Source: Paraspadella gotoi
Taxonomy: Eukaryota; Animalia; Chaetognatha
Assembly: GCA_051294375.1 (NCBI GenBank)
Contig: CM119265.1
Location: 902,089-966,088, forward strand
DNA: 64,000 nt
Reading direction: 5' to 3'
Each line of letters begins with the position of its first letter. Position 1 is the stretch's first letter. Below the pieces are notes generated by a model, which saw only the letters and a program-made list of their open reading frames with translations, was not told the origin of the DNA and ran no database searches. Shown here one piece after another: positions 3,001 to 49,059 of this stretch. The translations under genes and the position numbers were made by a program.

Positions 3001-6000
3001 GTATTCGCCATCGACATCGAAATCCCGCGGGGAGGAAAGGCGTGTCCAATGGCGTTATTTTGTCCTTGTTCGGGTAAAACGCGTTAGGAAGTCGGCGGGG
3101 TTGTCTTCACTCATTTACTAAGATCACCGCTCGAACGGCGTGGCACTCCCTTGATCTTCGGTTATTCCACCTTAGCACATTCGTCGGTAAGAGTTGTTTG
3201 TTGTCGTGTTTTGCATTTCCATAGACTCTGTTTAAAGTATTGTGAGGGTCTGTTATTTAGCGGCACCCTTCGTCCGCAGATGTAGCCTTTGAATTTTCTT
3301 ACCCATCAATGTTAAATGCCAGGCGTTTCTAGGAGATTAATGTGTTTTTATTACTGTATTCCTCCCCGGGAATGACTTTGAGTTGAAAACACAGTGGGTA
3401 TTCTACCCCTTCTGCTGTGGCTAATGTGATTGAGCCACTCCCATTGCGCTCGTGCTGGCGTCGGCGTATATATCTTGTATTCGCCATTCTTTATTTTTGC
3501 CATCGTTTAGAAAATTTAACTCCTGGGGTTGATTTTATTCTCTTCTACAGCGTTCGAGCGCGGCCTTCTTGTGCGTTTCTCGTTCAAAACGGAAAGTTTG
3601 CCTTGTCGACCAGCGTCAAGGGCATGCAACGGCATGCCCCGCCAAGTAGAAGAAACCGGTGAGTTAAAGCAGCGGTTAGTAATTTAGAGAAGCAAAAGCA
3701 GGGCCTCTAAGCGTCCTTTTGCGTTTTCATTTTTCGCCGCAATTTCACTTCCACCTGTTCTAGTTTTTCGCGCTGTGGCCGCAGCTTGGTCTCTCGAAAT
3801 GCTGAATTCGAGTATTTTGAATGTCGTCCTTTCGGAGGAGGACACTTGCTTCGTCGCCACTTGAGGATCTACGTCTCTGCTCGTCTGCATATTTCGAGGG
3901 AATTCTCTGGCAGTCGGTTGTGGCGCACCCATCTTCGGGATTTGATGTCGACGCGTAACTAACACATATCCACAGACTGCCGGGTGAGGATATGAGGTCC
4001 GTCGACGTAGATGAGGGAAACTTTTTCACGCTCCTCTACCCAGGTCCGTCGAATATCTCGTCTAAGGCATGGCCTGGAGTAACATTTATTGCTGTTTACT
4101 CCCCCATTGAGCTAACATTCAAAATCTGCCAATTGTGGCCTAGCCCAGGCGAAGAAGCGGTGACTGGCTTGCCATTCTGTCTGCGTGTGTCGGTGAGATT
4201 AACTTGGTGGAAACATGCGAGGATGTCAACGGAGCATTGTAGCTCGTGAGGTTTATATTCTTCCAGTATCGACGCTATTGTCTGAGGTTCAGTAGCAAAA
4301 GTCGATATGTTATTGTTCACCGCTGATAAGTCACATATGAGGCGCCATTGTTTCGCGAATGTTTCGTCATCCATTTTCTCCTGATTTTCAGCTATGTGAT
4401 TTGGCTTCTTTATGAGGAACGCGTTTGAGTACGCTTCCCCTGAGGTCCTTGACACAACGCCGGCTTTCTCGTACACTTTGAGGTATTGTTTCAGTGCCGC
4501 CTTCTTTACTGGGCCTTGGTTTACGAATCTGGGCTTTGGTAAGTTTTCTCTTGTGAATCCTAGATCGACTTTATAATTTAGAAAGCCCTCCTTGCAGTCG
4601 TTTATAGTTTCGCCAAACACATCTCTGAATTCCCAGACGACGTCCCAGACGATTTTTGCCTTATCCACTAGGGATTTATCTACTTCCTTGAACGGGCGGA
4701 GGAATTCCTCTTTACCNNNNNNNNNNTGCTTGTTTCGGCGTCTTTCTCTGGCTTCGTGGGCGGCTTCGATCTCGGCTTCCGACGGTTTGTGATGAACGAT
4801 CGTTGTCGGTGGAATATTTTCTTTTCTGACCTTTCGTAGTCGCGGCGATTCGCCTGATAAATCAGCTTGTACTGGTCTGGCGGTGAGTCTCGTTTTGAGG
4901 CCAAGTTCGTCCTTCGCTTCCTCCGTGATGATCAGCCTTGCTTCCCCCCAGAAGCCCGGGGTGCCGGGCAATTTGACGCCATGGCGGAGCTCGTTTCCTG
5001 TTACTGAGCAGGTCGTTTTTTCATCGGCTGATTCGACGATCCATTTCGCCTCAGCAAGGGATTTCCAGTACGTCCTCGCCGCTCTTACCATCACGCGACC
5101 GTCCTCGTCTCTCTCGGCGTATAACGGGATTTGCGTCTCCTCGTCGATGCAGCGGTGGGCTAACCATCTCGCGGCCTTGAGCGCGTCCTGTTTGTTCTTG
5201 TACAGGTGTGTTATGGGTTTTTCTGCCATGTGAGCAACTTGCATACCTTTTGTTTGCGCTGGTGCCACTACCCACATCTCCGCCGCTGGGCCTGGATCCG
5301 TGGTGGCGGTGCCGATTATTATATCCTTGTCTTGTTCGTCTGGTGAGACGAAAAAAACTGTGTCCAGGACCCAGTTCTGGAACATTACTCTCAGATTTAG
5401 TCTGTCTTTTATGACCACGACGCCATTTCCGGTTGTGACTCGGACCGGTGTTCCTGCATAGATTTTTCTGTGTAGGGACCACTCGTCGACGAATCTTCTC
5501 GGGATCGTGATCGAGGCGCCGGTGTCGTAGAGGCAACTCGCAGGCGCGCCGCCCCGCCGAGCTCACTACGAGCTAGTATGTAACGTAGTTTCCCGAGCCG
5601 TGCACCGGCCTGCCCGTGTCCGTGCGGCCGGTTCGGGGCTGGGTTTTGTCCGCGGACTAGATCCACCCAAATCTGGTCGGTAGCGGCGGAGGCGCTTTCG
5701 CCTTTCTCGGTTTCGGCGGTCGGTGCGGCAGAATTCGAAAGTTTTCTGGCCGCGTGCATTCGACTGTCAACCCTTGCCTGATCGTTCGCCTGGTGCATTG
5801 ATTCGCCTTCGGGTTGCCGACAACGACAGCGTAAGTGGGTTATAGACAGCTTCTCCCCTTCGCATGTACTAGTCGTAGCCTGCTTCCACTTCTTCTTGTG
5901 TGCCCGTAGCCACTTACCTTCCTTTCCGTTCTTGTCTTCACCATGTTTGCCCAATGTTCTCCGTGCTCCTTCTCTGTCGGCTTCTTATTCGCTCTGCGGC

Positions 6001-14900: not shown

Positions 14901-17900
14901 CAGATAAAACATCCGATTTTCCAAGCAGTTTTGTTTTTTATGTTGACTGAAGATTATTTTTCATCTCCTTCACCAACAATGATAAGTTTGATTCCAACAA
15001 CAAGTCTAGGAGGGTTATATTCTTCAAAACAGACTGCAACTCAGTCAACGACACAATCTTGGACAGAACCCACTCGGGTAAATTTATATACTATGAATCT
15101 TTTTTTAATTTATTGTTTAGGCTTATATGAAAAAAAATAATGAAGGCTAAAACCATAGTCGAAATATATTAATAAAAGTTTACCGTGGTTAAAACAATTG
15201 TTTGTCCACATCTGTGACTCATGTGTGATTGCTGGCAACATTGCTATTTGAATGAACTACAACTTAGGATGTTAATAATCTTAAAACATTTTAGTTATTA
15301 TAGTTTAAAGTTTATTCTTTTGTATTGTTGAAATTATTCCATCAGAAAATTAAATTAACAAATATTTTGTAAACAAAGGATCCTAATTCAACCATGTCCT
15401 ATTGCAATTCTTCTCTCAATACAGAAAATACAAAATACAGAAATACTGCTACCAAGCACAACTGGAGCAAGTAGCCAATTATTATCTCAGATAAAACATC
15501 CGATTTTCCAAGCAGTTTGTTTTTTATGTTGACTGAAGATTATTTTTCATCTCCTTCACCAACAATGATAAGTTTGATTCCAACAACAAGTCTGGAGGTT
15601 ATATTCTTCAAAACAGACTGCAACTCAGTCAACGACACAATCTTGGACAGAACCCACTCGGGTAAATTTATATACTATGAATCGTTTTTTTATTTATTGT
15701 TTAGGCTTATAATGAAAAAAAAATAATGAAGGCTAAACAATAGTCGAAATATATTTCTAATAAAAGTTTACGTGGTTAAACAAAATTGTTTGTCCACATC
15801 TGTGACTCATGTGTGAATTGCTGGCACATTGCTATTTGAATGAACTACAACTTAGGATGTTAATAATCTTAAAACATTTTAGTTTATTATAGTTTAAAGT
15901 TTATTCTTTTGTATTGTTGAAATTATTCCATCAGAAAATTAAATAACAAAATATTTGTATACAAAGGATCCTAATTCAACCATGTCCTATTGCAATTCTC
16001 TCTCAATACAGAAAATACAAAAATACAGAAATACTGCTACCCAGCACAACTGGAGCAAGTAGCCTATTTATCTCAGATAAACATCCCGATTTTCCAAGCA
16101 GTTTGTTTTTTATGTTGACTGAAGATTATTTTTCATCTCCTTCACCAACATGATAAGTTTGATTCCAACAACAAGTCTAGGAGGGTTATATTCTTCAAAA
16201 CAGACTGCAACTCAGTCAACGACACGATCTTGGACAGAACCCACTCGGGTAAATTTATATACTATGAATCGTTTTTTTTTAAATTATTGTTTAGGCTTAT
16301 AATGAAAAAAAAATAATGAAGGCTAAAACCATAGTCGAAATATATTTCTAAAGTTTACCGTGGTTAAAACAAAATTTTTGTCCACACCTGCGACTCATGC
16401 GTGAATCGCCGTCATCATCGCTATTTGAATGAACTCCAACTTAAGATGTTAATAATCTTAAAACATTTTAGTTTATTAAAGTTTATACTTAATCTTTCTA
16501 TTCTTTTGTAATTAAAATTAAAATATTTTGTATACAAAGGATCCTAATTCAACCATGTCCCATTGCAATTCTTTCTCAATACAAATGGACGCCATCTTTC
16601 TTGTCGACGAAAGTGGAAGCGTGAACCGTAATTCTTATCAAGAAGCCTTAGAATTTGTGGCCAGCGTCGTTGATGCTTTCAAAATTGGCAAGAATGAGGC
16701 CAGGGTCGCCCTGATCACCTTTGATCATAACCCCCTAACGGTTTTATCTTTGGTTAATTCAACACGAAAAGGAAAACAAGAGTCTATGAATGTTATTAAA
16801 GGAGCAAAGTATAATGGGGGTGGCACTTCTACAGGAAAAGCCATCACTGAAGCTGTAAAGCATTTTGAGGCACATCCTCGTGAATCAATTGCTCTCACAA
16901 AGATTATCATTGTCTTGACTGATGGAAGGAGTGGCGACAATGTCGCCATTCCAGCTGCTATAGCTAATGATAAAGGAATAAAGGTATACGCGATAGGCAT
17001 TGGCACCAACATTAATACTAAACAGTTGGAAGAAATAGCCATGGATTTATCAAGAGTCTATCATGTCTTAAGCACTGGTTTGCTCACTACGATCAAGAGT
17101 GATTTGGAAGAAAGAGTTTGTGAAGATGTGATGGGGATTCGCATAAATTGCACAACTGACTCTCACGGTTTTCCTTTGATGCACGTGCTTGTTCCTAGAT
17201 CTTTGAACTTTCAGTCATTTCTTACAATCGGAACTTGTTTAAACAAGAAATTGGAGAACTTCAATGAAGAATACTGGTTTTTTTCAATAATGTACAATGA
17301 ATGCGAAACGAAACTGAATTCAAGCGATTTGCACATCATTTATCACAACGTGATGTATCTTTCTGGAGAATCTGGATCTAATACAGACTCTGTTATTATA
17401 AGATCCGACAATCAAGCTTGGGGACTAAGATGTCTTTACGATAAAGTTATGATGAAAACCATATCAGGTGGAAGTTTTGAAACACAACCTAAAACCATTG
17501 AGAACAAGGGTAGTCTATTATTGTACATGGCTTTATACCGAACGTCTGCTTATTCAGAAGCATTAACATTTCCAGCCGAATTTTACTCTGATGAGTTGGT
17601 GTATATTCTCATACAACTGAGCAGCATTGAAAATCTGCAAATCTTTATTTTGGATTGCTGGGCCACGCCATCTGCGGATCCCAATCATGTTATTCAATAC
17701 ATGATGATTAAAGATGGTTGTATTTTGGACAAAACATTGTATTTTGACTCAAGATCTTCTTTTCTCAAAATATTGTTCTCATATGAGGCATTTAGATTTC
17801 GAGATGAGTCTACAAAAGAGGTATATATTCATGCAAAAGTTGTTATCTGTTTGAAAAATTCCGATTCCAGATGCAATCAAGGATGTATCGAAAATAAAAG

Positions 17901-19119
17901 GAAAAGAAGGGCAATTAATAACAACATTGAAGCTCTTAAAGAAGTTTCTGCAGGTCCATTGACTCTTGCAGAAGGATCAAGAACTAAATGCAAAGACATG
18001 GAACCCATTCAAAATGGCCACCTGGAATGTACCAAAGGCCTTGAATTGACATCATCCTGCCAACTTCACTGCTTACATGGGTTTTATCTATCAAGTTCTA
18101 ACCCAAGCAACGACTCAATTATTTGCTCTGCAAACTCAGACGAACCAGAATGGGAAGGTCCAACTTTAAATTGTATTGACATCAACGAATGTGCAGTTCC
18201 AAACAATCCATGCAATCAAGTACAGAATTCTGAAATGACTGAATGCGTTAATACTCTTGGATCTTACAAATGCCAATGTCTCAAGGGTTATAGATCACTT
18301 CAAGGTCCAAAGGTGTGCAAAAAAGCTTACTATTTTCAAGGTTCAATAAAATCATTAGAAACGTTTTTTGAAGAACTAAGGATTCCTAATTCAAAATTGT
18401 TTCAGCAAACAAAAAACGAATACGAATCTTTATTACGCAATTCTTTTCTACTAGAAATACAGCAAGATGCAGTTGATATTGAAATTTTTTTATTTACACC
18501 TGGAAGTATCATTATTCACTTCAATGTGTTTTATTTTAAAGAAGAATCCCTAATTTATCAAGACTTTTTAGAACTAAGATCCAAATTGAAGAAAGGATTG
18601 ACGAGTCGGAACTCGACTGACATTGTGATTTCATCCTTTAATCTTGATGATAAAAATGAGTGCAATGATGAAAGAGATAATGATTGCTCTGTCAATGCCA
18701 AATGCATCAACATCATTGGTTCCTTTTCTTGTGAATGCAAAATGGGCTACAAAGACTTTGGCATGAAAGAATTTCCTGGCAGAGAATGTGAAAAGGATTC
18801 GAGTGAAAATAGTGAAGAAAAAGACGTGACTCAGTGGGTGATATTCGGATTGGGCATTGCGGGGCTTTTGGTGGCACTCGTCATTATTCTCGGCTGCGTG
18901 ATCAACAAAAAATGTAAGGGATCAAAGGTTGTTCCTGAAATGTTTTACAACGATGAGTTTCAAAAAAGTGTGAGCAAATCTGAAGAAAAGGAAGATCAAG
19001 ATAAAGAATTTGATCAAAAGGAAAATGAAGATCAACAGGAAGAATTTGAACAAAAGGAATGTCTTGAATTTCGTGATCAACATTGGAACATGAGGGGGCC
19101 TGCACGAAAATATGTCTAA
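9623..19119 (+). CDS. Multi-exon type I membrane protein: (signal peptide)-EGF-EGF-linker-ANK-EGF-EGF-Ser/Thr-vWA-ZP-CCP-EGF_Ca-SEA-EGF_Ca-TM
   Basis: AG/GT-bounded exons: 10253-10366 and 10431-10544 (EGF-like, phase 1-1), 10619-10692, 11044-11557 (ankyrin), 13813-13926 and 14006-14116 (EGF-like), 14187-14481 (S/T-rich, small indels), terminal exon 16540-19119. A tentative poly-Val signal-peptide exon lies at 9623-9712 (phase off by 1 nt), with a possible ATG|GTAAGT at 8760-8762. Confidence 0.65.
10730..10786. repeat. (TTACCC)n telomere-like microsatellite in an intron
   Basis: cccttaccct tandem units interrupted by tggac/tggtc. Confidence 0.7.
11044..11557 (+). CDS. Ankyrin-repeat exon (about 3-4 repeats)
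   Basis: AASSGQIALLEYLFQNGLDVD, GDIEVIRFLLRKGADVF and SPLMYAIDLRLGQVVTELIAWGATV. An AG at 11042-11043 opens in phase 0 in frame with the ORF; the G|GTGAGA donor at 11557 is phase 1. Confidence 0.85.
11974..13602 (+). mobile_element. Non-autonomous Helentron-associated (HINE/DINE-1/Pearl-like) element, copy 1
   Basis: Starts AAGAAACAAGTTTGAGCAAACAAT. 5' subTIR GTCGGATCTGC at 11998-12008. 3' hairpin GGATCTGC-TGATAA-GCAGATCCGAC at ~13570-13595. (GGAC/GGAT)n microsatellite ~13414-13457. Tandem cores catttaaactcatttccact...acacactttcctaccc. Colinear with 54721-57417. Confidence 0.8.
12981..13283. mobile_element. ~300 bp insertion inside a HINE core repeat
   Basis: Interrupts catttaaactca|tttccact, which is intact in the sister copy (~57087-57107). 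CTCA occurs at both 12977-12980 and 13284-13287. Confidence 0.6.
14247..16583 (+). repeat. Tandem array of ~4 units of ~590 bp, each carrying a hybrid exon plus intron
   Basis: tacagaaatactgctacc recurs at ~14254, 14851, 15437 and 16024. acccactcgg|gtaaat donors at ~14481, 15077, 15661 and 16248. The acceptor aaag|gatcctaattcaacc occurs at ~14792, 15379, 15967 and 16540. Confidence 0.92.
16540..19119 (+). CDS. Single 2.6 kb terminal exon encoding vWA, ZP module, sushi/CCP, EGF_Ca, SEA, EGF_Ca, TM and acidic tail
   Basis: ORF 16528-19119. vWA MIDAS DAIFLVDESGSV, GGGTSTG and IVLTDGRS. ZP motifs YNECET, LDCWATPS, IKDGC, FSYEAFRF, VYIHAKVVIC. RKRR at 17899-17910. CCP CxxxxPIQNGHLEC...W.GP..C. 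DINEC...CVNTLGSYKC. SEA motif FTPGSIIIHF. DKNEC...CINIIGSFSC. TM WVIFGLGIAGLLVALVIILGCVI. Confidence 0.92.
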   Translation, partial: DPNSTMSHCNSFSIQMDAIFLVDESGSVNRNSYQEALEFVASVVDAFKIGKNEARVALITFDHNPLTVLSLVNSTRKGKQESMNVIKGAKYNGGGTSTGKAITEAVKHFEAHPRESIALTKIIIVLTDGRSGDNVAIPAAIANDKGIKVYAIGIGTNINTKQLEEIAMDLSRVYHVLSTGLLTTIKSDLEERVCEDVMGIRINCTTDSHGFPLMHVLVPRSLNFQSFLTIGTCLNKKLENFNEEYWFFSIMYNECETKLNSSDLHIIYHNVMYLSGESGSNTDSVIIRSDNQAWGLRCLYDKVMMKTISGGSFETQPKTIENKGSLLLYMALYRTSAYSEALTFPAEFYSDELVYILIQLSSIENLQIFILDCWATPSADPNHVIQYMMIKDGCILDKTLYFDSRSSFLKILFSYEAFRFRDESTKEVYIHAKVVICLKNSDSRCNQGCIENKRKRRAINNNIEALKEVSAGPLTLAEGSRTKCKDMEPIQNGHLECTKGLELTSSCQLHCLHGFYLSSSNPSNDSIICSANSDEPEWEGPTLNCIDINECAVPNNPCNQVQNSEMTECVNTLGSYKCQCLKGYRSLQGPKVCKKAYYFQGSIKSLETFFEELRIPNSKLFQQTKNEYESLLRNSFLLEIQQDAVDIEIFLFTPGSIIIHFNVFYFKEESLIYQDFLELRSKLKKGLTSRNSTDIVISSFNLDDKNECNDERDNDCSVNAKCINIIGSFSCECKMGYKDFGMKEFPGRECEKDSSENSEEKDVTQWVIFGLGIAGLLVALVIILGCVINKKCKGSKVVPEMFYNDEFQKSVSKSEEKEDQDKEFDQKENEDQQEEFEQKECLEFRDQHWNMRGPARKYV

Positions 19120-37245: not shown

Positions 37246-38212
37246 ATATAATAAATAACAAAATTTTTTTTAAATTTTATTTTTTAAAAACGGATTCTTA
37301 TAGAGCTTGAAAAGTTAGTACTACAATTTTTTTAAATTTTGATAATTAATTGGTTAAAAATAGAAAAAACCTTAAAAAATAATTATCATTATAGTTTTTC
37401 AAAATTTTTATCAATAAAACAAAAAAAATTTAAAAAGTTGTATTTATAGCCTTTATCTAACTTTTAAAGCTCTACCAGAATCTATTAAAAAAAATTGAAA
37501 AATAAAAAAAAATTTTGAAACTTTATATAGTAATAAAATAATCTTTAAATACTTCCGTGCGCTTATTAATAAAATAAATTTTAAAAATTATTTTTATTTT
37601 CATATTCTTTAACAGTCACCTAACCATTATTTATTTGAGAGAACTTCTAGTTTTCAACCTGTTCCGGCCTACATTTTTTTTAGTTTCCGTCGTCATTGTC
37701 GTTTTATATTTCTGGAAATCTCGGGGATTTTATCTTTTTTTTTGACAGTTTCCACTTGCACCTGTCAGACAAAAATACAATTTCTAAAGAAACAAAAGAC
37801 AATTTTGTTCTGCAAAAAGATATACATAATTATATAATTACAAAATTATTTTTAGTTTAATGAAAAGTTAATTCTTATCTCATATTTTTTTTTTTTTTAC
37901 ATTATCTTAAAAAAGATTTTGCTTTTTCCCTTGAAAATACTAGTTTTTAGATGTGCTTTATTTAAACCTTTAATAAATTTGTCTGTCGGGGCAGCAAAGA
38001 GTCTTTATTAAAATGTTTCATTTGCGTTCTTACAAATAAATGTATAAATTTCAGTTATGATTTAAATTTCATCCTCGTATTTCAACCCAAGATCTTAAAA
38101 ATTTAAGTAACTAATCGATTTGAGAGCACGTGATCTGATTGGAAAATCTTAAATTGGCGATTTAAACTACCAATTAATATAAATTAATTAAATCTGTAAT
38201 TTAATTTTTTGT

Positions 38213-41200
38213 ATGATTATGAAACAAACTAACACGGAATCAAGAGAGAAGAATGAGTCAACAGGTAACAATCAACTTAGGGAAAAAATATTACTAAGAA
38301 TAAAACACTGGCTAATAATGACAATGAAAGAGTATTATAATATTTAACATATAATTTTAAATTGTTTAAATTCTTATATAGACTCCAAAGACGGGCCTCG
38401 CGCGTGGATCATTTGTTTTGCTTTTTTCATCACTGCGATGCTTAACTACGGAACCGCCAGAGTTTTAGGAATTTTCTTGGACGAATGGGAAAAGGAGTTT
38501 AAAGTGCCTAAGGTAGATTATGATTTGTTTACAACTTTAGGGTTTTAAATATTATTTTTATTTTTAATACCAAAAACAGTATTAACATAATCATAAACAG
38601 TAACAGTATAAAAGACTGGAAAACAGTAAGCAAGAAAAAACTAAACTATTAAACTAAACTATTAATGTTACTATAATTTTTTTTATTTCAAAAATAATAA
38701 AAACAGAAGTTACATAATGACATAAAGTGACGTAAAAGACAATAACCTTATGACTAAAATGTTACTATAAAAAAATATAAAAAATAAAGTTTAAGAACAT
38801 TCAAGGATCAAATGTCAAAATCTACAACGTCAGTTTTTTATTCAAACAGACAAACATAGTCTAAACATGTATGTTTAAATAAAAAACTGCCGTTGTTGAC
38901 ACCATTTTTTTCCCTTGTTTATAACCTCAAACACAAAGAATCGAAAGAAAAACAATTCATATTTGTATATTTGATTCTTTAAAAAGTTGATATTTGTCTT
39001 ATGATTATTTTGATTTTCTTTATTTTTTTAAAATAAAGTATAAAATGTAAATGAGTCTTTGAGACCGAGGCTTATTAACAAACATTTGATGTTCTTTTGT
39101 TTTTCAGTCGATCGCTTCATTCATACCCTCCGCCGCCTTCTTAGCGATGGGTCTGGGTTTTCTCGCGATGGCGCTTTTCCACGGGAGTCACTCGCCACGT
39201 GGCGTCAGCATCGTCAGCGGCGTCGTCGCCAGCGGCGCTTTTGTGGGCGTGGCATTCGCCGACTCGTTCGCCCTCCTCCTCATTTGCGTAGGGTTAATTT
39301 ATTATTTAGAATTAATATGACATTAAGAATATTTTAAGATAAAACAACTAAACGAACAAATCTAAATATGATTAGAAAAATAATATAAAAACAACAGGTA
39401 AAGCGAAACCAAGCCAAAACAAAGTAATAAAAGACTAAATAAAATGAAACACTAAACCAAACAATAAACCAAACGACTAAAGAAAACCCAAATAAAAACA
39501 AACAAAATAAATAAAAATCAAATAAACAAACAAACACTAACAATTGAACAATTGAAACATTCTTTGAAATATTATACCACTTTATTGATAGGGAAGCCAA
39601 GTACTCTGGGAGTAAATAAACGAGACAGTGAGAGAATCTTGATTGAAAGCTTGCAGAGACCTGCTATGTTATTATCTTGTAAGAGTGATGGAGGCCTTAA
39701 ACCACCAAAGCCTGTCAAAAGTCAGGGACAAGATAGTTTATTTATTAAATGAATGGATGAGTTTAATATTGGTTGTACAAATTTTAAGAATTATAATCGA
39801 AACAAATCTTTCTTTCCTTTTTAAGACGATCGTAGGTTTCGTAGCCTCAACAACCTCATACACTTCGGCCATAGCGACTCTTGGCTCTTGGACTGATCGT
39901 TGCCGCCCTTTGGCCTTTGGCCTTTCAAACGCGGGGTCGCCCATAGCCGGGATGGCCTTTCCGCCGATCCTCGCAGCCCTGACGGCCGAGTTGGGCTGGA
40001 GGGGCTGTTTTCTCATCGTGGCGGGATTGACGATGCATCACTGTCTCTGCGGGATGATGATCAAGGTTTAATACCATAAATTGTAAATAAATCTAAGAAT
40101 AAATTTATGAATGAATAAATCTGTAAATAAATCTACAATAATTGTATTTTAAACACGTTAAGCCCCAACTTTAATACTATTAGTAAGAGAGTAAAAATGT
40201 TTCCATATGAGGGGTTCTAACCTAATAAATAAGTTTTAGCAAACAATGCCCATCTGCCCACGATCATTAGCGGTAAGCAGCTGATAAGATAAGTAATTAA
40301 TTAATTTTTTGCTATTCGTTGTGGCGAACAGTCACTTAAACGATATTGACTCCAAAGTTCGTGTGAATAATAAAATGTCTCCGGAACAAAATTTTTATTT
40401 GTTCATAATAGTAATAACAGAGCTTAATAAAATAATCAAAGCATATAGATATTCTGTCTGCTTTATTTGACAAGCAATCAAAATATCTATATCACACAAT
40501 AATATAAACAGTAACATTAATATAAATCAACATGAATAAAAACATGAACAAAATTCTGAATTAAAAAAACATTTTTTTCATAATTTATAGTAATACGATA
40601 AACTATAAACTATACTATTAACTATACATATAATCTTAATTTTTTTTTAATTTCGTTATCACACAGGGATGCTCTAACCTTACCATCTTGGAAAATGAAT
40701 AAGTCGCCAAATTTTAAAGTTAGTTAATTGTATATTAAAATTTAAATATAACAGAAAAAATGGGTATCAATATGTAGTGTGAACTCCCTTGCTCTTCACA
40801 ACTTTATTTATTCTGTTCAGCATTGACTCATAGAGCGACTGCAGGTATTCCAAGGAGAGGTTATCCCAAACTTTTTTGATAAGTCGTTTCATGGCTTGCA
40901 GAGATGTTGGACGTTCGTTTCTCAGTCGATTTTTCATCTCTGACCACACATTTTCGATCGGATTGAGATCCGGAGAGTTCCCAGGCCAGTCAGGTAGAAG
41001 TTTAACCCCATTTTGGTGATGCCACTTTTTTGTCTCCTTGGCTCGATGCGGAGGGGCGTTGTCTTCCATAAAAACTCAACATCGGACAAATTCTTTTATC
41101 TTCGCTTCCTCCAGAATTTCTCTATATTTGGCGCCATCAACGCATCCCGAAATGAAGATTAACTTTGACTTGGCACGGGTAGAGATTGCACCGAACACTA

Positions 41201-41933
41201 TGACCTTCGGTTGCTGCTTAACCGTCTGCAATATGCAATTAGGATGCAATGCTTCGCCGACGCTGCTGCACACTTCGAAGATTCACTCTTAGCTGTTTAG
41301 ATATAGAAGTATTCTTGATACCCGCTTTGTGCAATTCAATTATAGATGCACGTTGATCACTTGTAAAATGCCAACGTTGAGGCATAATAAAAAAATACAG
41401 TGTAAATTTTAAAAAAAATGAAGGAAAAAAATTATTAAAATCTGAATACGCCAAAGAAAGCTAATTTTTTTCGATCTCCTTCTTTTCTTTCCTCTGCCCT
41501 GTTGGCAATTTTAATCATAATCTAACATAAACCGTCTCCATTTGATCGAAAATCGCCAAACTTTCTGGAAATATAATTTTTTTCTTTCGATTATGTTAGG
41601 AAGGTGTTTAAAAATGATCGAGAAGTTTGGCGACTTATTCATTTTCCAAGATGGTATTTAAAAACTATTTATATTACAGAACTCTAAGTTTTTACGTTGT
41701 TCCGCCTTAATACATATAAGATAAAGATGTTTAGCAACATCATTTTGAATACCATAAGCCCTTTCCCGGCGCGGACGAAGCGATGGAAGGGTGCGCCGCG
41801 AAGGACCTCTGGCGGCGACGGGAATTCATCCTCGTTTTGACTTCGACCGCAATTCGATTTGGCGCTGATGTCGTCGTCATCGTTTATCAGCCGACGTGGG
41901 GGAGAATGAGGGGATTGGATGAGGGAGAGGTAT

Positions 41934-42002
<69 letters not shown>

Positions 42003-44539
42003 CATTGAAAAGTATTAAAAATAATTCGAAAATCGAATTAAATGAAAAAAATCAAATAAAACTGGCAAAAAAAAATCATCTTAATCATCTTAAATCATCT
42101 TAAATCATAAATCTTAAATCATCTTAATCATCTTAAATCATCTTAAAGTATACTATCAAGTAGTTTTTCAAGATCTGGAATAAAACATTACTGGATAATT
42201 GATAATTCTTTGGAGTTTTTGGATAAAATTTCTCAATTAAAAACAGATTTTCTAGAAACATATGATTTTTCAACATTATATCCATCACTTCCTCATTATG
42301 AAATCAGGAGTAAGCTAAAGATTTCCATTCAGAACAATTTTTTCAAGGGAAAATAAAACATATATAAATGTAAATCATAATAAAGCATATTTTTCAAATA
42401 CTAAGAATAAAGGTTATATTTCTTTTACTGAGAAAGATTTTAAATATTGTCCTCAACTTTATTTTAGATAATGTTTTTGTCAAATTTGGCTCCCTAATAT
42501 ATAAACAACAATTAGGAATACCAATTGGACTAGATTCTGGTCAAGATATTGCTAATTGTTGTTATTTTATTTTGAATCAACATATATGGAAAATATGACA
42601 AAAAATAATTTAGGAATCGCTAGACAATTTAAAAATTGCTCAAGATATATTGATGACCTTTTTTCAGCCGATTTTAAGGATTTTAATATGCATCTTGCCA
42701 ACATATATCCAGCAGCACTTACTGTCAATAAATCTAATAGTACAGATACAAATGTAGATTATTTAGACATAAACATTAAATCAGAAAACAAAAATCTTAC
42801 TCTGTCTGTTTATGATAAAAGGGATTCCTTTTCTTTTGAAGTAGTTAATTACCCATATATGGACAGTTGTATTCCTAAAAAGCAGCACTAGGTGTATTTA
42901 TTAGCCAATTAATAAGATATGCAAGAATATGTTCGACGTTTACAGATTTTTCTTCAAGAGCTATAAATTTAAGCAAAAAACTACAAAGTCAGGGTTATAT
43001 ATTTAAGGACTTAAGAAAAATGGGAATTAAATTTTTCAATATTTATAAGGAGCTAATAAAAAATATAATGTTACTGATGTTAATCTATTTTCAAAAAAGA
43101 TTATACATGATAGTTCCTAATAAAAATGATAAGGAAAAAATAACAAAAATAAACCACTAAATAATAATTATAATAATAACATCAACAATATTATTTAAAT
43201 AACTTATTTAACTTATTTAACTTATTTAACTCTCTGATTTAATTTATTTTTTAACTTTTACCAATTAACTTAATGTTAACTTTACATTAACATACCCTTA
43301 ATTATTAACTTATTATTAAACTAATTATTTAACTTATTTTATTTATTTACAAATTACAAATTATTACAAAACCTTAATAAAATTTCTCTAAAATTAATGA
43401 TGCTGTGAAGCCAGGGCTTTGGTCTGTTTCAGATAAACATTCAAGATATACATTTAAAATATAAGATAAGCAACAATGAAGGATCACCATTTGGTGATGG
43501 CTCGCCTATACCTGGATATTGGGATTAAAGAGCCGAAATCCATGAAGGGTATAGGTTCCCAACTGATGACCTTCCATTGTATAAAAATGAAAGATAAAAA
43601 ATATTCAAAAAAGAAACAATTAAAAAGTAGAATAAAGAAAAATATAACTTTAAAATTATATTCATGACATAAAGGTGCCCCTATAGACCTTTCCCCGGTA
43701 TGTATCCCTATCAGAACATACAATTCTACATGGTAGTCTTATCCCTATTGGTAAAAAAAATCATATATAACTTTGGTCACCCCTCAAAAAATTATCCATT
43801 CCCACCCCTTTCTGTTCAGCCTCTTAGATATTATGATTTTTCATTAATGACTTTCTAACAGAAATGATGTGTGATATCTATTAGAAAACTAGGACAGATA
43901 GTAATCTAACCTTGTGTTGTATAGATGCTCCCTCTATTTCCAGAAGACAACACTGACTTCCCCTTCCCAATTGAATTATTAGATAAATAAAACATTTTTA
44001 AGAAAGAAAGCAATATATATTTGAATAAATAATAAGATTAAATACTAAATCCTTCATAAAATATAAAAATAGAAAATAGTGAAACAAGTAATTTGCAAAT
44101 TTTCATATATTATCAATAATTTAAAATATTAAAAATACTAAATTCTGAAGAAAATGAAATGATACTTTTTTTCGAAATATAAAACTCGTTTGTTTGTAAA
44201 TAAAATATGTTTTCTCTCTAAGGCAACATTCGAAAAATAAATGGTTCGTATGTGTGCGAAAGTTTTTTTTGACAAAAATGAATCCAATTATTTAGTCTTT
44301 TGTTCGATCTCCATTTCCTCCGTCAGGTGGCGACGCTCGTACTCTGCCTCGGAGGCGGTGACCTTCTCGCCCGACTTCTCGTCGGCCCGATCCTGACCAT
44401 CCCAACCGCCCGTCAACGGACGCTGCCCGCCCTCGTCGTCACCCACTTTCTCGCGGGCGTCGGCGCCGTCGTCGTCGGAATGTCCAGGGACTACGGTCAA
44501 CTCGCGATGGCCAGCGTCCTCTTTGGCGTTTCTTACGGT

Positions 44540-44637
<98 letters not shown>

Positions 44638-44998
44638 GTTCTTACCGCCCTGCCCCCCATTTTAGGGGCGTGGCTCGTCACCTTCACATCATTTCTCTCC
44701 GATTATTACGCATCCAATTTTTCTTTCGCTTACAACATTTCGATGTTTATAGGAGGAATAACGAGCATCCTTTTTCCCTTCACTTTAGGTAAATGTCGTT
44801 GCTATTTTGTTTTTGACGAAAAATAATGCAATCAATTTATTAATCCATCTTTTTCTTTCGTTTCCAGGTCATTTGCAAGAGCACTACGAATATTTCGAAC
44901 TTGTCTTTTTCATATCGAGCGGACTTTTGGCGTTGTCTGGATTTTTGTTGATGTTATTGCTCGTACCGCCTCGCTTGTCTTCTCATTTACGCACTTGA
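38213..44998 (+). CDS. Monocarboxylate transporter (SLC16/MCT family, MFS)
   Basis: Exons ~38213-38273, 38382-38511 ([16 protein letters not shown]...LGIFLDEW), 39108-~39292, 39826-40065 ([15 protein letters not shown]...[18 protein letters not shown]), 41759-41929, 44327-44537 ([10 protein letters not shown]), 44666-44788 and 44869-44998. A few single-base indels. Confidence 0.85.
40683..41654 (-). mobile_element. Tc1-like DNA transposon (DD34E), internally deleted
   Basis: 29 bp TIR CCATCTTGGAAAATGAATAAGTCGCCAAA at both ends, flanked by TA. Transposase N-terminus [22 protein letters not shown]; C-terminus EDNAPPH...[15 protein letters not shown] (40767-41069). Confidence 0.95.
42149..43750 (+). 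mobile_element. 5'-truncated Penelope-like retroelement RT (resembles the Naiad type, no C-terminal GIY-YIG); 3' end uncertain
   Basis: [12 protein letters not shown] ~42260, [10 protein letters not shown] ~42500, SRYIDDLF ~42640, [28 protein letters not shown] and [15 protein letters not shown] ~42890-42935. The frame ends ~43120 with no GIY-YIG after it. Begins after an (AATCATCTTA)n tract. Confidence 0.85.
43473..43580 (+). ncRNA. Candidate rearranged (non-circularly permuted) hammerhead ribozyme
   Basis: CTGATGA 43563-69 and GAAA 43535-38. Stem I 43519-24/43557-62, stem II 43499-503/43530-34, stem III 43513-17/43538-42. Predicted cleavage after A43518. Confidence 0.75.
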
Positions 44999-45753
44999 TA
45001 AAGTTTTGTGATTGCTTACTTTTATTTAGCGTTTGTGTTAGGCATAAATTCAATATTGTATTATTATAAATAACGACATTAATGTCACTCTCGAAAAAAA
45101 TATTTTAAACTTGTATTTTTTTTTCATTACGAAACTGTCGTATTTAAATAAACTAAATAAAACACACTGAGCTACAATTTGTGTTTTAGTTACGTACAGG
45201 TGATGCGTCGTAAAACTTTCAACCTAAGATTAAAATCATTAACATACGTCTGTACTGTATAGTGTACTTTGTGTATTGTGTATAATCGTATAATAATTAT
45301 TTTACGCGTTCCAAAATTGTCGCGCCTTGTTCCTTTGTCATTTTCCCTCTCACAACGACGATGACGACGACGACGAACCTGGCGACAAAATTCTAAACTT
45401 CGCTGCTCAAATGTTTCCCGCCGCCGCCGCAGCCGCCGCAGCAGCCGCATCAGCCGATGTCGGTCCCCACAGCAGCCGCCGCCGATGACGTCGCCGCAAT
45501 TTACCGGCTTTTTCGGAAATAATTTAGCGGGAAAAAAATTAATTAAGTTATTTAGCTAAAAATATCATAGTTATACCAAGTTTTATCGTCGATTTTCGTT
45601 TTTCTCGTATTTTGCTTTTCTTTTAACCACAGATCTACTATGCACTTCTTTTGATCTCGTTAATATTTCGTTAAAAAATAAAGAATAAAAAAAAATACTC
45701 GATCCCCTAAAATAAAAAAGTCCGGAAGACGCGCCGACGCCGGAGAAGCGAAG

Positions 45754-48700
45754 ATGACGGTCAAAGCCGAGAAAAACGCCCACGACGACCGGAAACTCGA
45801 GGAAAGGGTGGGTTTCGAATCTTGGGGGGCGGGGAAAACGGTGAGGGGAAGGTCTTGGGTAGACGCTGGAGCGGGTCGGGGGTCAAAGGCCTCGCCATTT
45901 ATCGTACAGGAGTTGGAGCGGCAACGGGCCATGATCCTGGGTCGATTCAGTTTCATCGACGAAGTTGACAAATCGTCACTCGACGACAGCGTCGCTCTCG
46001 CCGAAGTCGTCAAGGAATGGAAGGCTTCGTTAAGGGACGAGAGGAAAAGGCTCAGGTGGGTTCTGGGTGGTTTTATGAGGGGGTTGGGGTGGAAGGGGTC
46101 TTTTGAGGAGTGGGGTCAGGTTAGAGAGTGTAAATTATCAAAAATTATCTAATCTTAAGCTTTTAGTAGTACTGTTATTAGATATGGTAGTTCTGTATTT
46201 CTGCCTGTGTAATTTTTTTCTAAAATTTAGAAATTAAATACTTATGATAAATAGGAAATACAAATTACAGGTTTCCTCATAGTCGTCATAGCATAGGATA
46301 ATAATTTATTAGTAATTAGTTTCTGATTAAATTTCAGTTAATGGTTAAATAGAAAAGACTACCATTCAGAATTCAGTACGAATCGAATCGCGATGACGTC
46401 GCCGACGCTGCCGATGCTGCCGATGCGGCTGCCGGTGCAGAAGAGGGTCCCAAGTCGGGCACCGACTCCGTCGCGAGACCCAAGTCGGTTCGACGGGCCA
46501 AAGGTAAAGTTTGGGTGAGATTTTCGAGCGGATATGGCGGGAATTTTTGAAAATGGATTTAATAAAGTTAAGAGTGATCGGGTTTTCGGCTTAATTTGAC
46601 ATTCGCCGACTAAGGTAAGAGAGTGTTCAGGGTTAAGGGTTTAGTTTTAAAGGGGTTATGGGGGTTTAGGTCATACATTGTTATCTCGTGAGAAGCGAAA
46701 ATCTTAGTAAAATGTAAAATTTTACCACTATTTTTAGTGGATATTGTAAGAACGAATAGGAATTATTACCTTTAGTGATAACTCTTATAATTGATATGTA
46801 ATCGATAATTTTCTTCTCCAGGATACGACGGAGTGAATCTCCCAAAAGCCGGAGAGAGTTTCGTCGTCGTTTGGGTTACGACCAAGGGACAGGTCAGTCG
46901 GTCCGTCTCTTATTTTTAGTCCCCAAACCCACGAGCTCTAATATGAACTATTTTACGTAATTATTCGTGACTTTTTCTGAACCACATCCGATTTTTTAAC
47001 TGCTAATCGAACGATAATAACGTCTTTTAAAGGTTAACGGAAGTCGGGAATATCGTTAACCACCTCCTCAACCCCCTCAACCACCCTTTTCCACAGGTGG
47101 TGGTCGACAAGGATGTGATGTTGCTCAACATGAAGGAAGTGGTGAAGACGCGACTGGAGAATCCCGACGTCGTTGGACCCAAAGGTGGAGTAATATTCGT
47201 AAAGTCACCACCTTTTTAAAAACTCTCCATTTCCGTGTCCTCGGATTTGAGATTTGAGATTTGAGACGAGAGTGAAACGAAAGGACTTGTTATTTTTATT
47301 ATTTTAATGAGGAGTTTAACCGTTTTAAAAATAAAGTTATCCTGTGGAGATTAACTTTATGAAAAATAAACTAGGCAAACTAAATAATTTTTTTTTCCAA
47401 TTGGTTTTTACCAAGGATAAAGCATGTCATAATACCAGTTTTTTCGGTTTATTTTAGCTTTAATATTTAATGCTATCCTTTCTCTCGAAGGCCCCCGCTT
47501 CGCTTGGGTCCTCCGCGGCGGCGACTCTGATTCTGACTCTTCGACGCTCGACTTCGACGTTGATCTCTTCTGGTCCGTCGGATTCCTCTTTAAACACTTC
47601 AAGACTTGCGGCCTCCAAAGATGGGACAAGCAGATGGCTTTGTTAAGGTCAGGACCGGCCAATCATGGGAACGGGAAGAATTTTGTCTTGATGCTCTTTT
47701 GTCCTTTCAAAGTTTTCTTTCTTTTTCCTTTTCTTTTTCTCTGTCTCCCTCTCCCATTTCTCTATTTCCTTCCCTCTCTGTCTCCCTCTCATCTCCAGAA
47801 AAGAGTTGCGCACCGCTGAATCCGCTTCCGGCGCCGCTGCTTCGAATTCTCCGTCCGCGCCCGGGAAACGCCGCCGCCGACGCAGCGACGCAGGAGGGAA
47901 ATACTTCGGGCGTCTCGTTGGGTGGAAGGGAACTTACGGCTTCTTGCAGGTGGTCGTTGCTGTCATCGCTTTAGATGTTTGTTAATTCGGTGGTTGTGGC
48001 AAAGACGGAGCTGTGTGACAGCTGGTGACTGTGATCGTATTGAATCCGGAACTCACGGTTGGTGAGCGAGTGTTTTACTGTTGCAGCTGTTCCAGAAATT
48101 GGGAGGAGCAAGAAGGGAGAGTGCTGTACGGGAGGCGAATTTAGGATATCGCCAAGAGGGTCATACTTGAGTATGGCAGTTATTTGGATAATCGTGTAAC
48201 TCCTCATTATCATCCATATATTCCTCAGTGCACCAGCGGCGACCGCGAGGGCGACACGGTCTTCCTTCACCACACGGATATCGTCTCCCCTTATTTGAAT
48301 CTCGCTCGCGGCCTTCAGTTCCGCTTCGACGTCGTGGCCGAGTCGGGCCTCGGCGACGCCCGCGACGGCAAACTCCGTGCCGTCAGGGCCACGCCCTGCC
48401 TCTGTAACTTCTCTTGCTCCGTTCATCGAGATGAGGCGGGGGAGGAAGGGAAGGAGAAGAAGGGCGTGGTGAGAAGTGGAGGGGGGAATTTGATTTGCTA
48501 TTATGAAAATTGAAAAATTACTTGATTCATTATGTAAATATTTTTTTTAGATTTTGAAATATTTTATATTTACGATTTTATTAATTTTTTTTCACATTTC
48601 ATTTATATTTTTTATTATCCTTAGGTTTAGTTAATTGAACCTAAAATTATTTACGGGGATGTATTTATGGGGATGGGGATATTATTATTATTATTATCCT

Positions 48701-49059
48701 AATAATTATTATAATTATTCCGCTTTTCTGCTTGATGCTTACCGCATATAAATAGAAGTCTACCAACATAAACATTATTGATAAATACCTTTAATTAAAT
48801 GACAAGTAAATATATTTTTATATTCTTAATCCTCCTCCGACCGCCTCCCCCTCCCTCCCCCCTTAAGGACAAACCCCGTCGTCGTCGTCGTTCCTCTAAA
48901 TCCTCAAAGACGGCGCCACATTCCAACTCCGGCGTCGAGGGCGAAGAGATTGGCGGGGGCGCCGGTGACGCCGTCCAACGAGCCAAAGGCGAAAAGCGGC
49001 GTCGGTCGGCGCGACGCATCAACCGGAGGCCAAGGCAGAAAGCGGAGGTGGAAGCTTGA
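45754..49059 (+). CDS. Cold-shock-domain protein with an unrecognised N-terminal region and basic tail
   Basis: Exons 45754-46055, 46370-46503, 46822-46892, 47097-47184, 47491-47648, 47798-47949 (YFGRLVGWKGTYGFLQ, RNP1-like), 48229-48468 (GDTVFLHHTDI...FRFDV...KLRAVRA, RNP2-like) and 48868-49059. Confidence 0.7.

Follow-up and report, generated by a model that had tools for sequence, protein, structure and literature searches.

A probable hammerhead-type ribozyme with a rewired backbone in the 3′ UTR of a Naiad element

A broken Penelope-like element of the Naiad type, lying in the 64 kb stretch of DNA analysed here (the window), very probably carries within its 3′ untranslated region (UTR) a conserved hammerhead-type RNA whose backbone is rewired and which is predicted to self-cleave 3′ of A43518. 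Seven helices, an intact core, the S-G-C order of the segments, a detached strand of stem II, covariation amongst relatives, and a Naiad-type reverse transcriptase (RT) upstream are all observed, and by analogy with known hammerheads the predicted self-cleavage activity is likely.

Results

The predicted RNA spans positions 43473–43580 of the forward strand of the window, with its segments in the order S-G-C (Table 1), as the sequence-only reading that preceded this analysis had proposed under the labels S1, S3, and S2. The segments and perfect stems described in that reading are also borne out, with each helix forming an exact reverse complement: ACAATG/CATTGT and AAGG/CCTT in the closing helix P0, ATCACC/GGTGAT in the junction hairpin, GGCTC/GAGCC in stem II, TGGA/TCCA in stem III (to which U43517-A43538 adds a pair), TTGGGA/TCCCAA in stem I, and CCTATACC/GGTATAGG in the 8-bp I helix, giving seven exact helices in all. 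The core of the hammerhead class is complete, comprising CUGANGA (C3–A9, 43563–43569), GAAA (G12–A15.1, 43535–43538), an NUH site including U16.1–A17 (43517–43518), and the G10.1-C11.1 and A15.1-U16.1 pairs.

Instead of following CUGAUGA, the 5′ strand of stem II lies upstream and is reconnected via a four-way junction that is perfect, with zero unpaired bases at A9/C43570, G43482/A43483, and U43498/G43499. The I helix connects the outer ends of stems II and I. It had earlier been described as extending stem III, and whilst the helix itself stands, only its 5′ strand abuts stem III, with 5 nt (43543–43547) separating the two on the 3′ strand. An identical 7-mer is present at 43476–43482 and 43542–43548, the second of which could compete for the 3′ strand of P0.

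Table 1. Positions of the predicted ribozyme segments and of host element features in the window
Feature	Position	Strand	Basis or remark
Reverse transcriptase of a Naiad-type Penelope-like element, 5′-truncated, frameshifted	about 42150..43120	+	tblastn; last frame stops at 43118–43120
Closing helix P0, 5′ strand (6 + 4 bp)	43473..43482	+	exact complement of 43570–43580, C43574 bulged
Junction hairpin (6 bp, 4-nt loop; flush on both sides)	43483..43498	+	exact complement; covariation
Stem II 5′ strand (G10.1 = 43499), detached from CUGAUGA	43499..43503	+	exact complement; conserved GGC
I helix 5′ strand (partner 43548–43555; G43504-U43556 a possible ninth pair)	43505..43512	+	
Block S: stem III strand, AUA triplet, predicted cut 43518/43519, stem I strand	43513..43524	+	cut site by analogy with the hammerhead core
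Block G: stem II 3′ strand, GAAA (G12 = 43535), stem III strand	43530..43542	+	exact complement
I helix 3′ strand	43548..43555	+	exact complement
Block C, first part: stem I strand and CUGAUGA (C3–A9)	43557..43569	+	exact complement; stem II impossible after A9
Closing helix P0, 3′ strand, immediately after A9	43570..43580	+	exact complement; one further bulged C in some copies
Second conserved tail block of the element	43676..43795	.	contig pile-up as on the ribozyme

When the whole layout is written as a lenient descriptor (the core letters; at least 3 bp in stems I and III; at least 4 bp in upstream stem II, in the hairpin, and in the closing helix; G-U pairs allowed; the 8-bp I helix omitted from the requirements), it gives one match in the window, the motif itself, and two matches in 400 dinucleotide shuffles, with both strands searched. 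The folding z-score of the motif is −3.75, with equal stability reached in 0 of 200 shuffles, and CTGATGA alone is not enriched in the window (7 observed, 7.8 expected). Rfam gives no hammerhead match in 38000–49000 at E values up to 5, in keeping with the earlier expectation that standard hammerhead models would miss the motif. A covariance model built from seven loci, excluding the window, scores the motif site at 52.4 bits, part of which derives from core words common to model and window, with the runner-up place in the window scoring 12.9.

Folding calculations that exclude pseudoknots favour a rod of −39.8 kcal/mol over the nested helices of the model (−27.8 kcal/mol). In this rod the CUGAUGA strand is occupied by the hairpin strand; the junction hairpin reaches a probability of only about 0.29, whereas those of P0, the I helix, and stem III are close to 1. 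Stems I and II, worth about −7 kcal/mol each as duplexes, are uncounted in this calculation, and the active fold may therefore compete with the inactive rod.

The RT region is matched in tblastn by residues 397–691 of a related protein, P0001, with an E value of 4e-88 and 53–73% identity in pieces, and comparison of the RT piece with longer proteins yields 4 relatives amongst 134 candidates (57–67% identity), the nearest of which are Naiads. P0001 and a second related protein, P0003, both contain the CxC and DKA motifs and have the RT at their C-terminus; P0003 starts with the apparent end of a GIY-YIG domain, as judged by eye, with Pfam finding nothing in this protein. CxC, DKA, GIY-YIG, and an RT at the end are the marks of Naiads in the accessible text of Craig et al. 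2021 (PMC8557442). The ORF in the window stops at 43120, its C-terminus aligning with those of P0001 and P0003; the RT is C-terminal, with no endonuclease behind it. The window copy starts 3′ of GIY-YIG, CxC, and DKA, so that its probable Naiad membership follows from these relatives.

The motif starts 352 nt 3′ of the RT stop on the same strand, in the 3′ UTR of the element. Its earlier placement in the 3′ region of a Penelope-like element holds, and sequence comparison points, more exactly, to a Naiad rather than to a Penelope-like element generally as the host. The second conserved tail block follows the ribozyme after a shorter spacer in some copies, and shows no folding signal on either strand (z of +1.37 and +0.24). 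Exons (+) of an MFS transporter-like gene, the downstream ones assigned by eye, flank the element within 38375–44990, and with the element lying sense-wise between these exons the predicted self-cutting RNA would lie within a host intron. Elsewhere in the window, an uninterrupted 865-codon frame with VWA, ZP, EGF, and SEA domains lies at 16522–19119 amongst intron-rich nearby genes, a 488-codon frame with a retroviral-type aspartyl protease match, a piece of an LTR element, lies at 4096–5562 (−), and a putative Tc1/mariner transposase-like remnant is seen by eye at 40780–41290 (−).

Relatives were sought in metagenomes using core words of one core subtype only, with the upstream junction absent from the pattern, giving at least 120 stretches; the core letters of these loci are imposed by the search pattern, and their conservation is not evidence. 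With a model of the upstream junction, 14 of the 122 non-window matches listed score 24–33 (31 for the window), the 108 others scoring 20 or less. The full layout is present in at least 15 metagenome loci, representing 12 distinct sequences, with L042 included by model score. Alignment of seven loci without a model shows pairing in 95.6% of 273 cells, with 13 of 39 pairs changing on both sides. For the 12 sequences aligned by model (42–86% identity), 94.1% of 441 cells pair and 26 of 39 pairs change on both sides, covariation across relatives of the kind that the sequence-only reading had named as a check. No match to this result is seen in 500 shuffles, and slid controls pair at 30–39%, figures that are not probabilities, with the alignment fitted to four of the six helices (P0, hairpin, I helix, and stem III) and the sequences being related.

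Changes on both sides extend to all six aligned pairs of P0 (80.6% of cells paired), 11 of 14 in the junction hairpin (99.3% paired), and 6 of 9 in the I helix. GGC immediately follows the hairpin in 12 of 12 aligned sequences, at a place outside the search pattern, and pairs with GCC before GAAA, with only 0–1 bp of stem II possible after A9 in 14 of 14 copies tested, confirming that stem II is separated from A9. Four of the 12 aligned sequences have a non-standard pair adjoining A9, stem I is short, weak, or bulged in several metagenome loci, and stem II is self-complementary in several relatives. The inner pairs of stems II and III are invariant in the metagenome set and, judged by eye, vary only in published consensi. 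Outside the 12-sequence alignment are L055/L099 and L035/L065/L111, which fit by descriptor or by eye and were not found by the model, the identical copies L058 and L075, and the partial chance rows L097 and L027; the layout does not fit L101 and L103.

A Naiad-like RT lies upstream on the same strand in 3 of 19 loci examined (L039, L051, and L057), with many of the 19 having too little flank to show whether an RT is present. Contigs of the window's organism stack on 43484–43579 far above the flanks (as summed depth of the contigs listed, not copy number), and no substitution at 1% or above is listed across 43455–43600, which is a weak sign only. A contig from a biofilm equals 43474–43574 without difference (101 nt), with unrelated flanks, and in a contig from a second organism stem III is one pair shorter on both strands. 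No Naiad RT was found in viral contigs, two pattern scans of which (21 and 37 loci) gave no model match above 10.6 bits, and one tight pattern gave 0 matches in prokaryotic genomes.

Three further contexts show that the motif is not confined to Naiads. In L091 (1–2881) it lies between the end of an ORF with a zf-RVT domain, a nuclease-like stretch, and a UCH domain, which we assign to the non-LTR type, and a following ORF that encodes a zinc finger; the ribozyme of R2-like elements occupies this position. A broken UCH frame lies upstream of the motif in L025, and these two loci tie the motif to elements other than Naiads. In L092 (1949–2066) a gene encoding three C2H2 zinc fingers, EGR-like by eye, is followed on the same strand by a well-formed motif about 500 nt past its stop codon, possibly in a host 3′ UTR. 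A looser variant occurs in L035 (1–1453), which lacks an RT match, within a terminal direct repeat (123 nt, period 1330 nt), as well as in L065 and L111. The L035 repeat is as expected from a circle or tandem, and may belong to a non-autonomous unit.

In the accessible part of Craig et al. 2021 (PMC8557442), Naiads are described as lacking a canonical hammerhead, with some marked ‘HHR_core’ or ‘HHR_half_core’. Within the portion of the consensi available, the split layout can be seen by eye in at least 7 of the 54 Naiad families, but with a different sequence in each helix: Naiad-3_Chem, three Acropora families, and another three entries assigned from their file order (a ctenophore, a Morbakka family, and Naiad_Plae or Naiad_Dcar). 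These seven were found via the GAAA-side word alone, yet each has CUGANGA and the NUH site in place, with AUA, GUA, and AUC as cleavage triplets. The Acropora and Plae/Dcar entries have a perfect junction, whereas that of the others contains a U-U pair or a spare base. By eye, type CSG is seen in a further seven families of the same portion, with block C uninterrupted and an I helix present (three Nippostrongylus, two presumed Pristionchus, Heligmosomoides, and one spider, the copy of which has one extra base following A9). Neither motif is present in five fully read 3′ ends (Naiad-1 and -2_Chem, Naiad-2_Skow, and Naiad-1 and -2_Pfla), and these tallies of seven, seven, and five are not a census of the 54 families. 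Within the same excerpts, a different motif, conserved and structured, recurs in the 3′ UTR of Naiads without the hammerhead (Clytia 1 and 2, hemichordates, and a bivalve), and the Clytia families have a further motif in common; both are possibly other ribozymes, and neither occurs in the split-hammerhead loci.

Discussion

Classical types I, II, and III were rejected as descriptions of the motif, given that S-G-C is not the cyclic order S-C-G, that the fold is pseudoknotted, and that Rfam gives no hammerhead match; a classical or intact-SGC reading was likewise rejected, as stem II cannot form after A9. The closest likeness is to type SGC as presented in the accessible text of Eckert et al. 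2023 (PMC10085705), with which the motif shares the S-G-C order, a pseudoknotted core, all core nucleotides, a short linker between stems I and II, and an I helix joining the outer ends of both. In type SGC, however, block C is unbroken, with stem II 0–2 nt after CUGAnGA, and the ends of the RNA lie at stems III and II, whereas block C of the window motif is split at A9/G10.1, the RNA ends are held by the four-way junction, and stem III is closed by the I helix. Furthermore, type SGC is known from metatranscriptomes only, whereas the window motif is located downstream of a retrotransposon ORF in genomic DNA of animal type. The sequence-only reading had left open whether this topology belongs to a described class; the order is that of type SGC, and the split block C falls outside the six permutations of Eckert et al., whose text, as far as accessible, reports no known alignment with more than 1–2 nt between A9 and stem II.

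Type CSG was published in the same source from two metagenomic sequences, both active, with the SGC ribozymes (HRIMA-1 and a variant) and the CSG ribozymes cleaving in vitro as monomers (PMC10085705, accessible text). Type CSG and the window motif arrange I helix, C, S, and G in the same cyclic order, but in type CSG block C is intact and there is no junction, making the window form a circular permutation of it plus two helices. Type I hammerheads of other Penelope-like elements also place the core near the 3′ end of the element (PMC4209133 and PMC8557442, in the parts available), and differ in their classical order, often minimal stem III, and dimeric action (PMC4209133). The pseudoknot hammerhead of Zhan et al. 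2024 (PMC11300833) and the core variants of Perreault et al. 2011 (PMC3088659) share the core chemistry, with peripheral pseudoknots and core insertions of 1–2 nt amongst them; in both, however, A9 is joined to G10.1, and the accessible sections of both papers mention no permutation or inserted helix. The available parts of PMC2632901 and PMC12192606 hold nothing on a split topology, and those of a 2026 retrozyme preprint mention Naiads merely as a clade. A search of the literature, with most subscription papers outside its scope, turned up neither the split form nor permuted hammerheads in Naiads, and no published hammerhead with a helix between A9 and G10.1. One extra nucleotide between A9 and G10.1 is reportedly tolerated in a viroid hammerhead.

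With the C11.1–G12 strand continuous, stem II could still stack on the G12-A9 pair, whilst P0 and the hairpin would stack together, with A9-to-C43570 and U43498-to-G43499 as the crossing strands of the four-way junction, and the I helix would tie the outer ends of stems I and II, as in type SGC. Cleavage would then proceed by standard hammerhead chemistry involving G12 and the 2′-OH of G8, as set out in the accessible text of PMC11300833, to leave a 2′,3′-cyclic phosphate on A43518 and a 5′-OH on U43519. AUA is a natural, though slower, cleavage triplet according to the available part of PMC1636495. The putative role of the ribozyme would be to cut unit-length element RNA from host or tandem transcripts. 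A tandem is the usual arrangement of Penelope-like elements. With about 28 bp (P0, stem II, the I helix, and stem III) spanning the cut, the cleavage products would be expected to remain base-paired. A unit released from a tandem could reassemble the ribozyme from its own termini, favouring ligation into a circle. The split form may have originated by circular permutation of the CSG form of nematode and spider Naiads, with the ends shifted into the A9/G10.1 step; the cyclic order of the elements is that of type CSG, so that the split form could hypothetically be derived from a tandem of CSG units.

A conserved fold that does not cut, and is instead a hammerhead-derived binding or template-recognition site for the RT of the element, is unlikely. 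It would suit a junction that adjoins the core, the predicted competing rod, and the existence of Naiads without the motif, but the catalytic positions and the NUH site are kept in all seven of the available consensi found via the GAAA-side word only, and the presence of the motif beside other types of element (L091 and L025) fits better with a self-contained function. We consider it quite improbable that the RNA cuts only between two copies or with a protein, like the minimal hammerheads of other Penelope-like elements, with the single-molecule junction as a resting state. Metazoan hammerheads of this kind reportedly require dimers and are slow in vitro (Cervera and de la Pena 2014, PMC4209133, accessible part), the tangled layout may fold poorly, and the self-complementary stem II of several relatives is consistent with dimers; against this, every stem is complete inside one copy, stem III is stable, the 64 kb window holds a single copy, and the SGC and CSG forms cleave as monomers.

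That short complementary words were arranged by chance, or that the motif is an assembly artefact, is scarcely credible. The descriptor matches in shuffled sequence indicate that a large genome holds some chance matches, but the covarying relatives refute this explanation, and the identical 101-nt match in an unrelated biofilm sample and the same layout in the available published Naiad consensi also stand against it.

Beyond the hammerhead-type RNA itself, we favour, with some reservation, a broader reading in which the split form is a seventh natural topology, an active ribozyme with its A9/G10.1 break rebuilt by a four-way junction. Together with type CSG it would constitute the missing ribozyme of Naiads across several animal phyla, would also be used in unrelated non-LTR retrotransposons, and its paired products would drive circle formation of retroelement RNA.

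The split form breaks the assumption behind the six permutations, namely that CUGAnGA is inseparable from its neighbouring stems, and would make A9/G10.1 a site at which the best-studied small ribozyme accommodates entire additional helices. Non-circular permutations would thereby move from unassigned environmental contigs into animal retrotransposons, and, as standard descriptors and Rfam miss the split form, ribozyme tallies for invertebrate genomes are probably too low.
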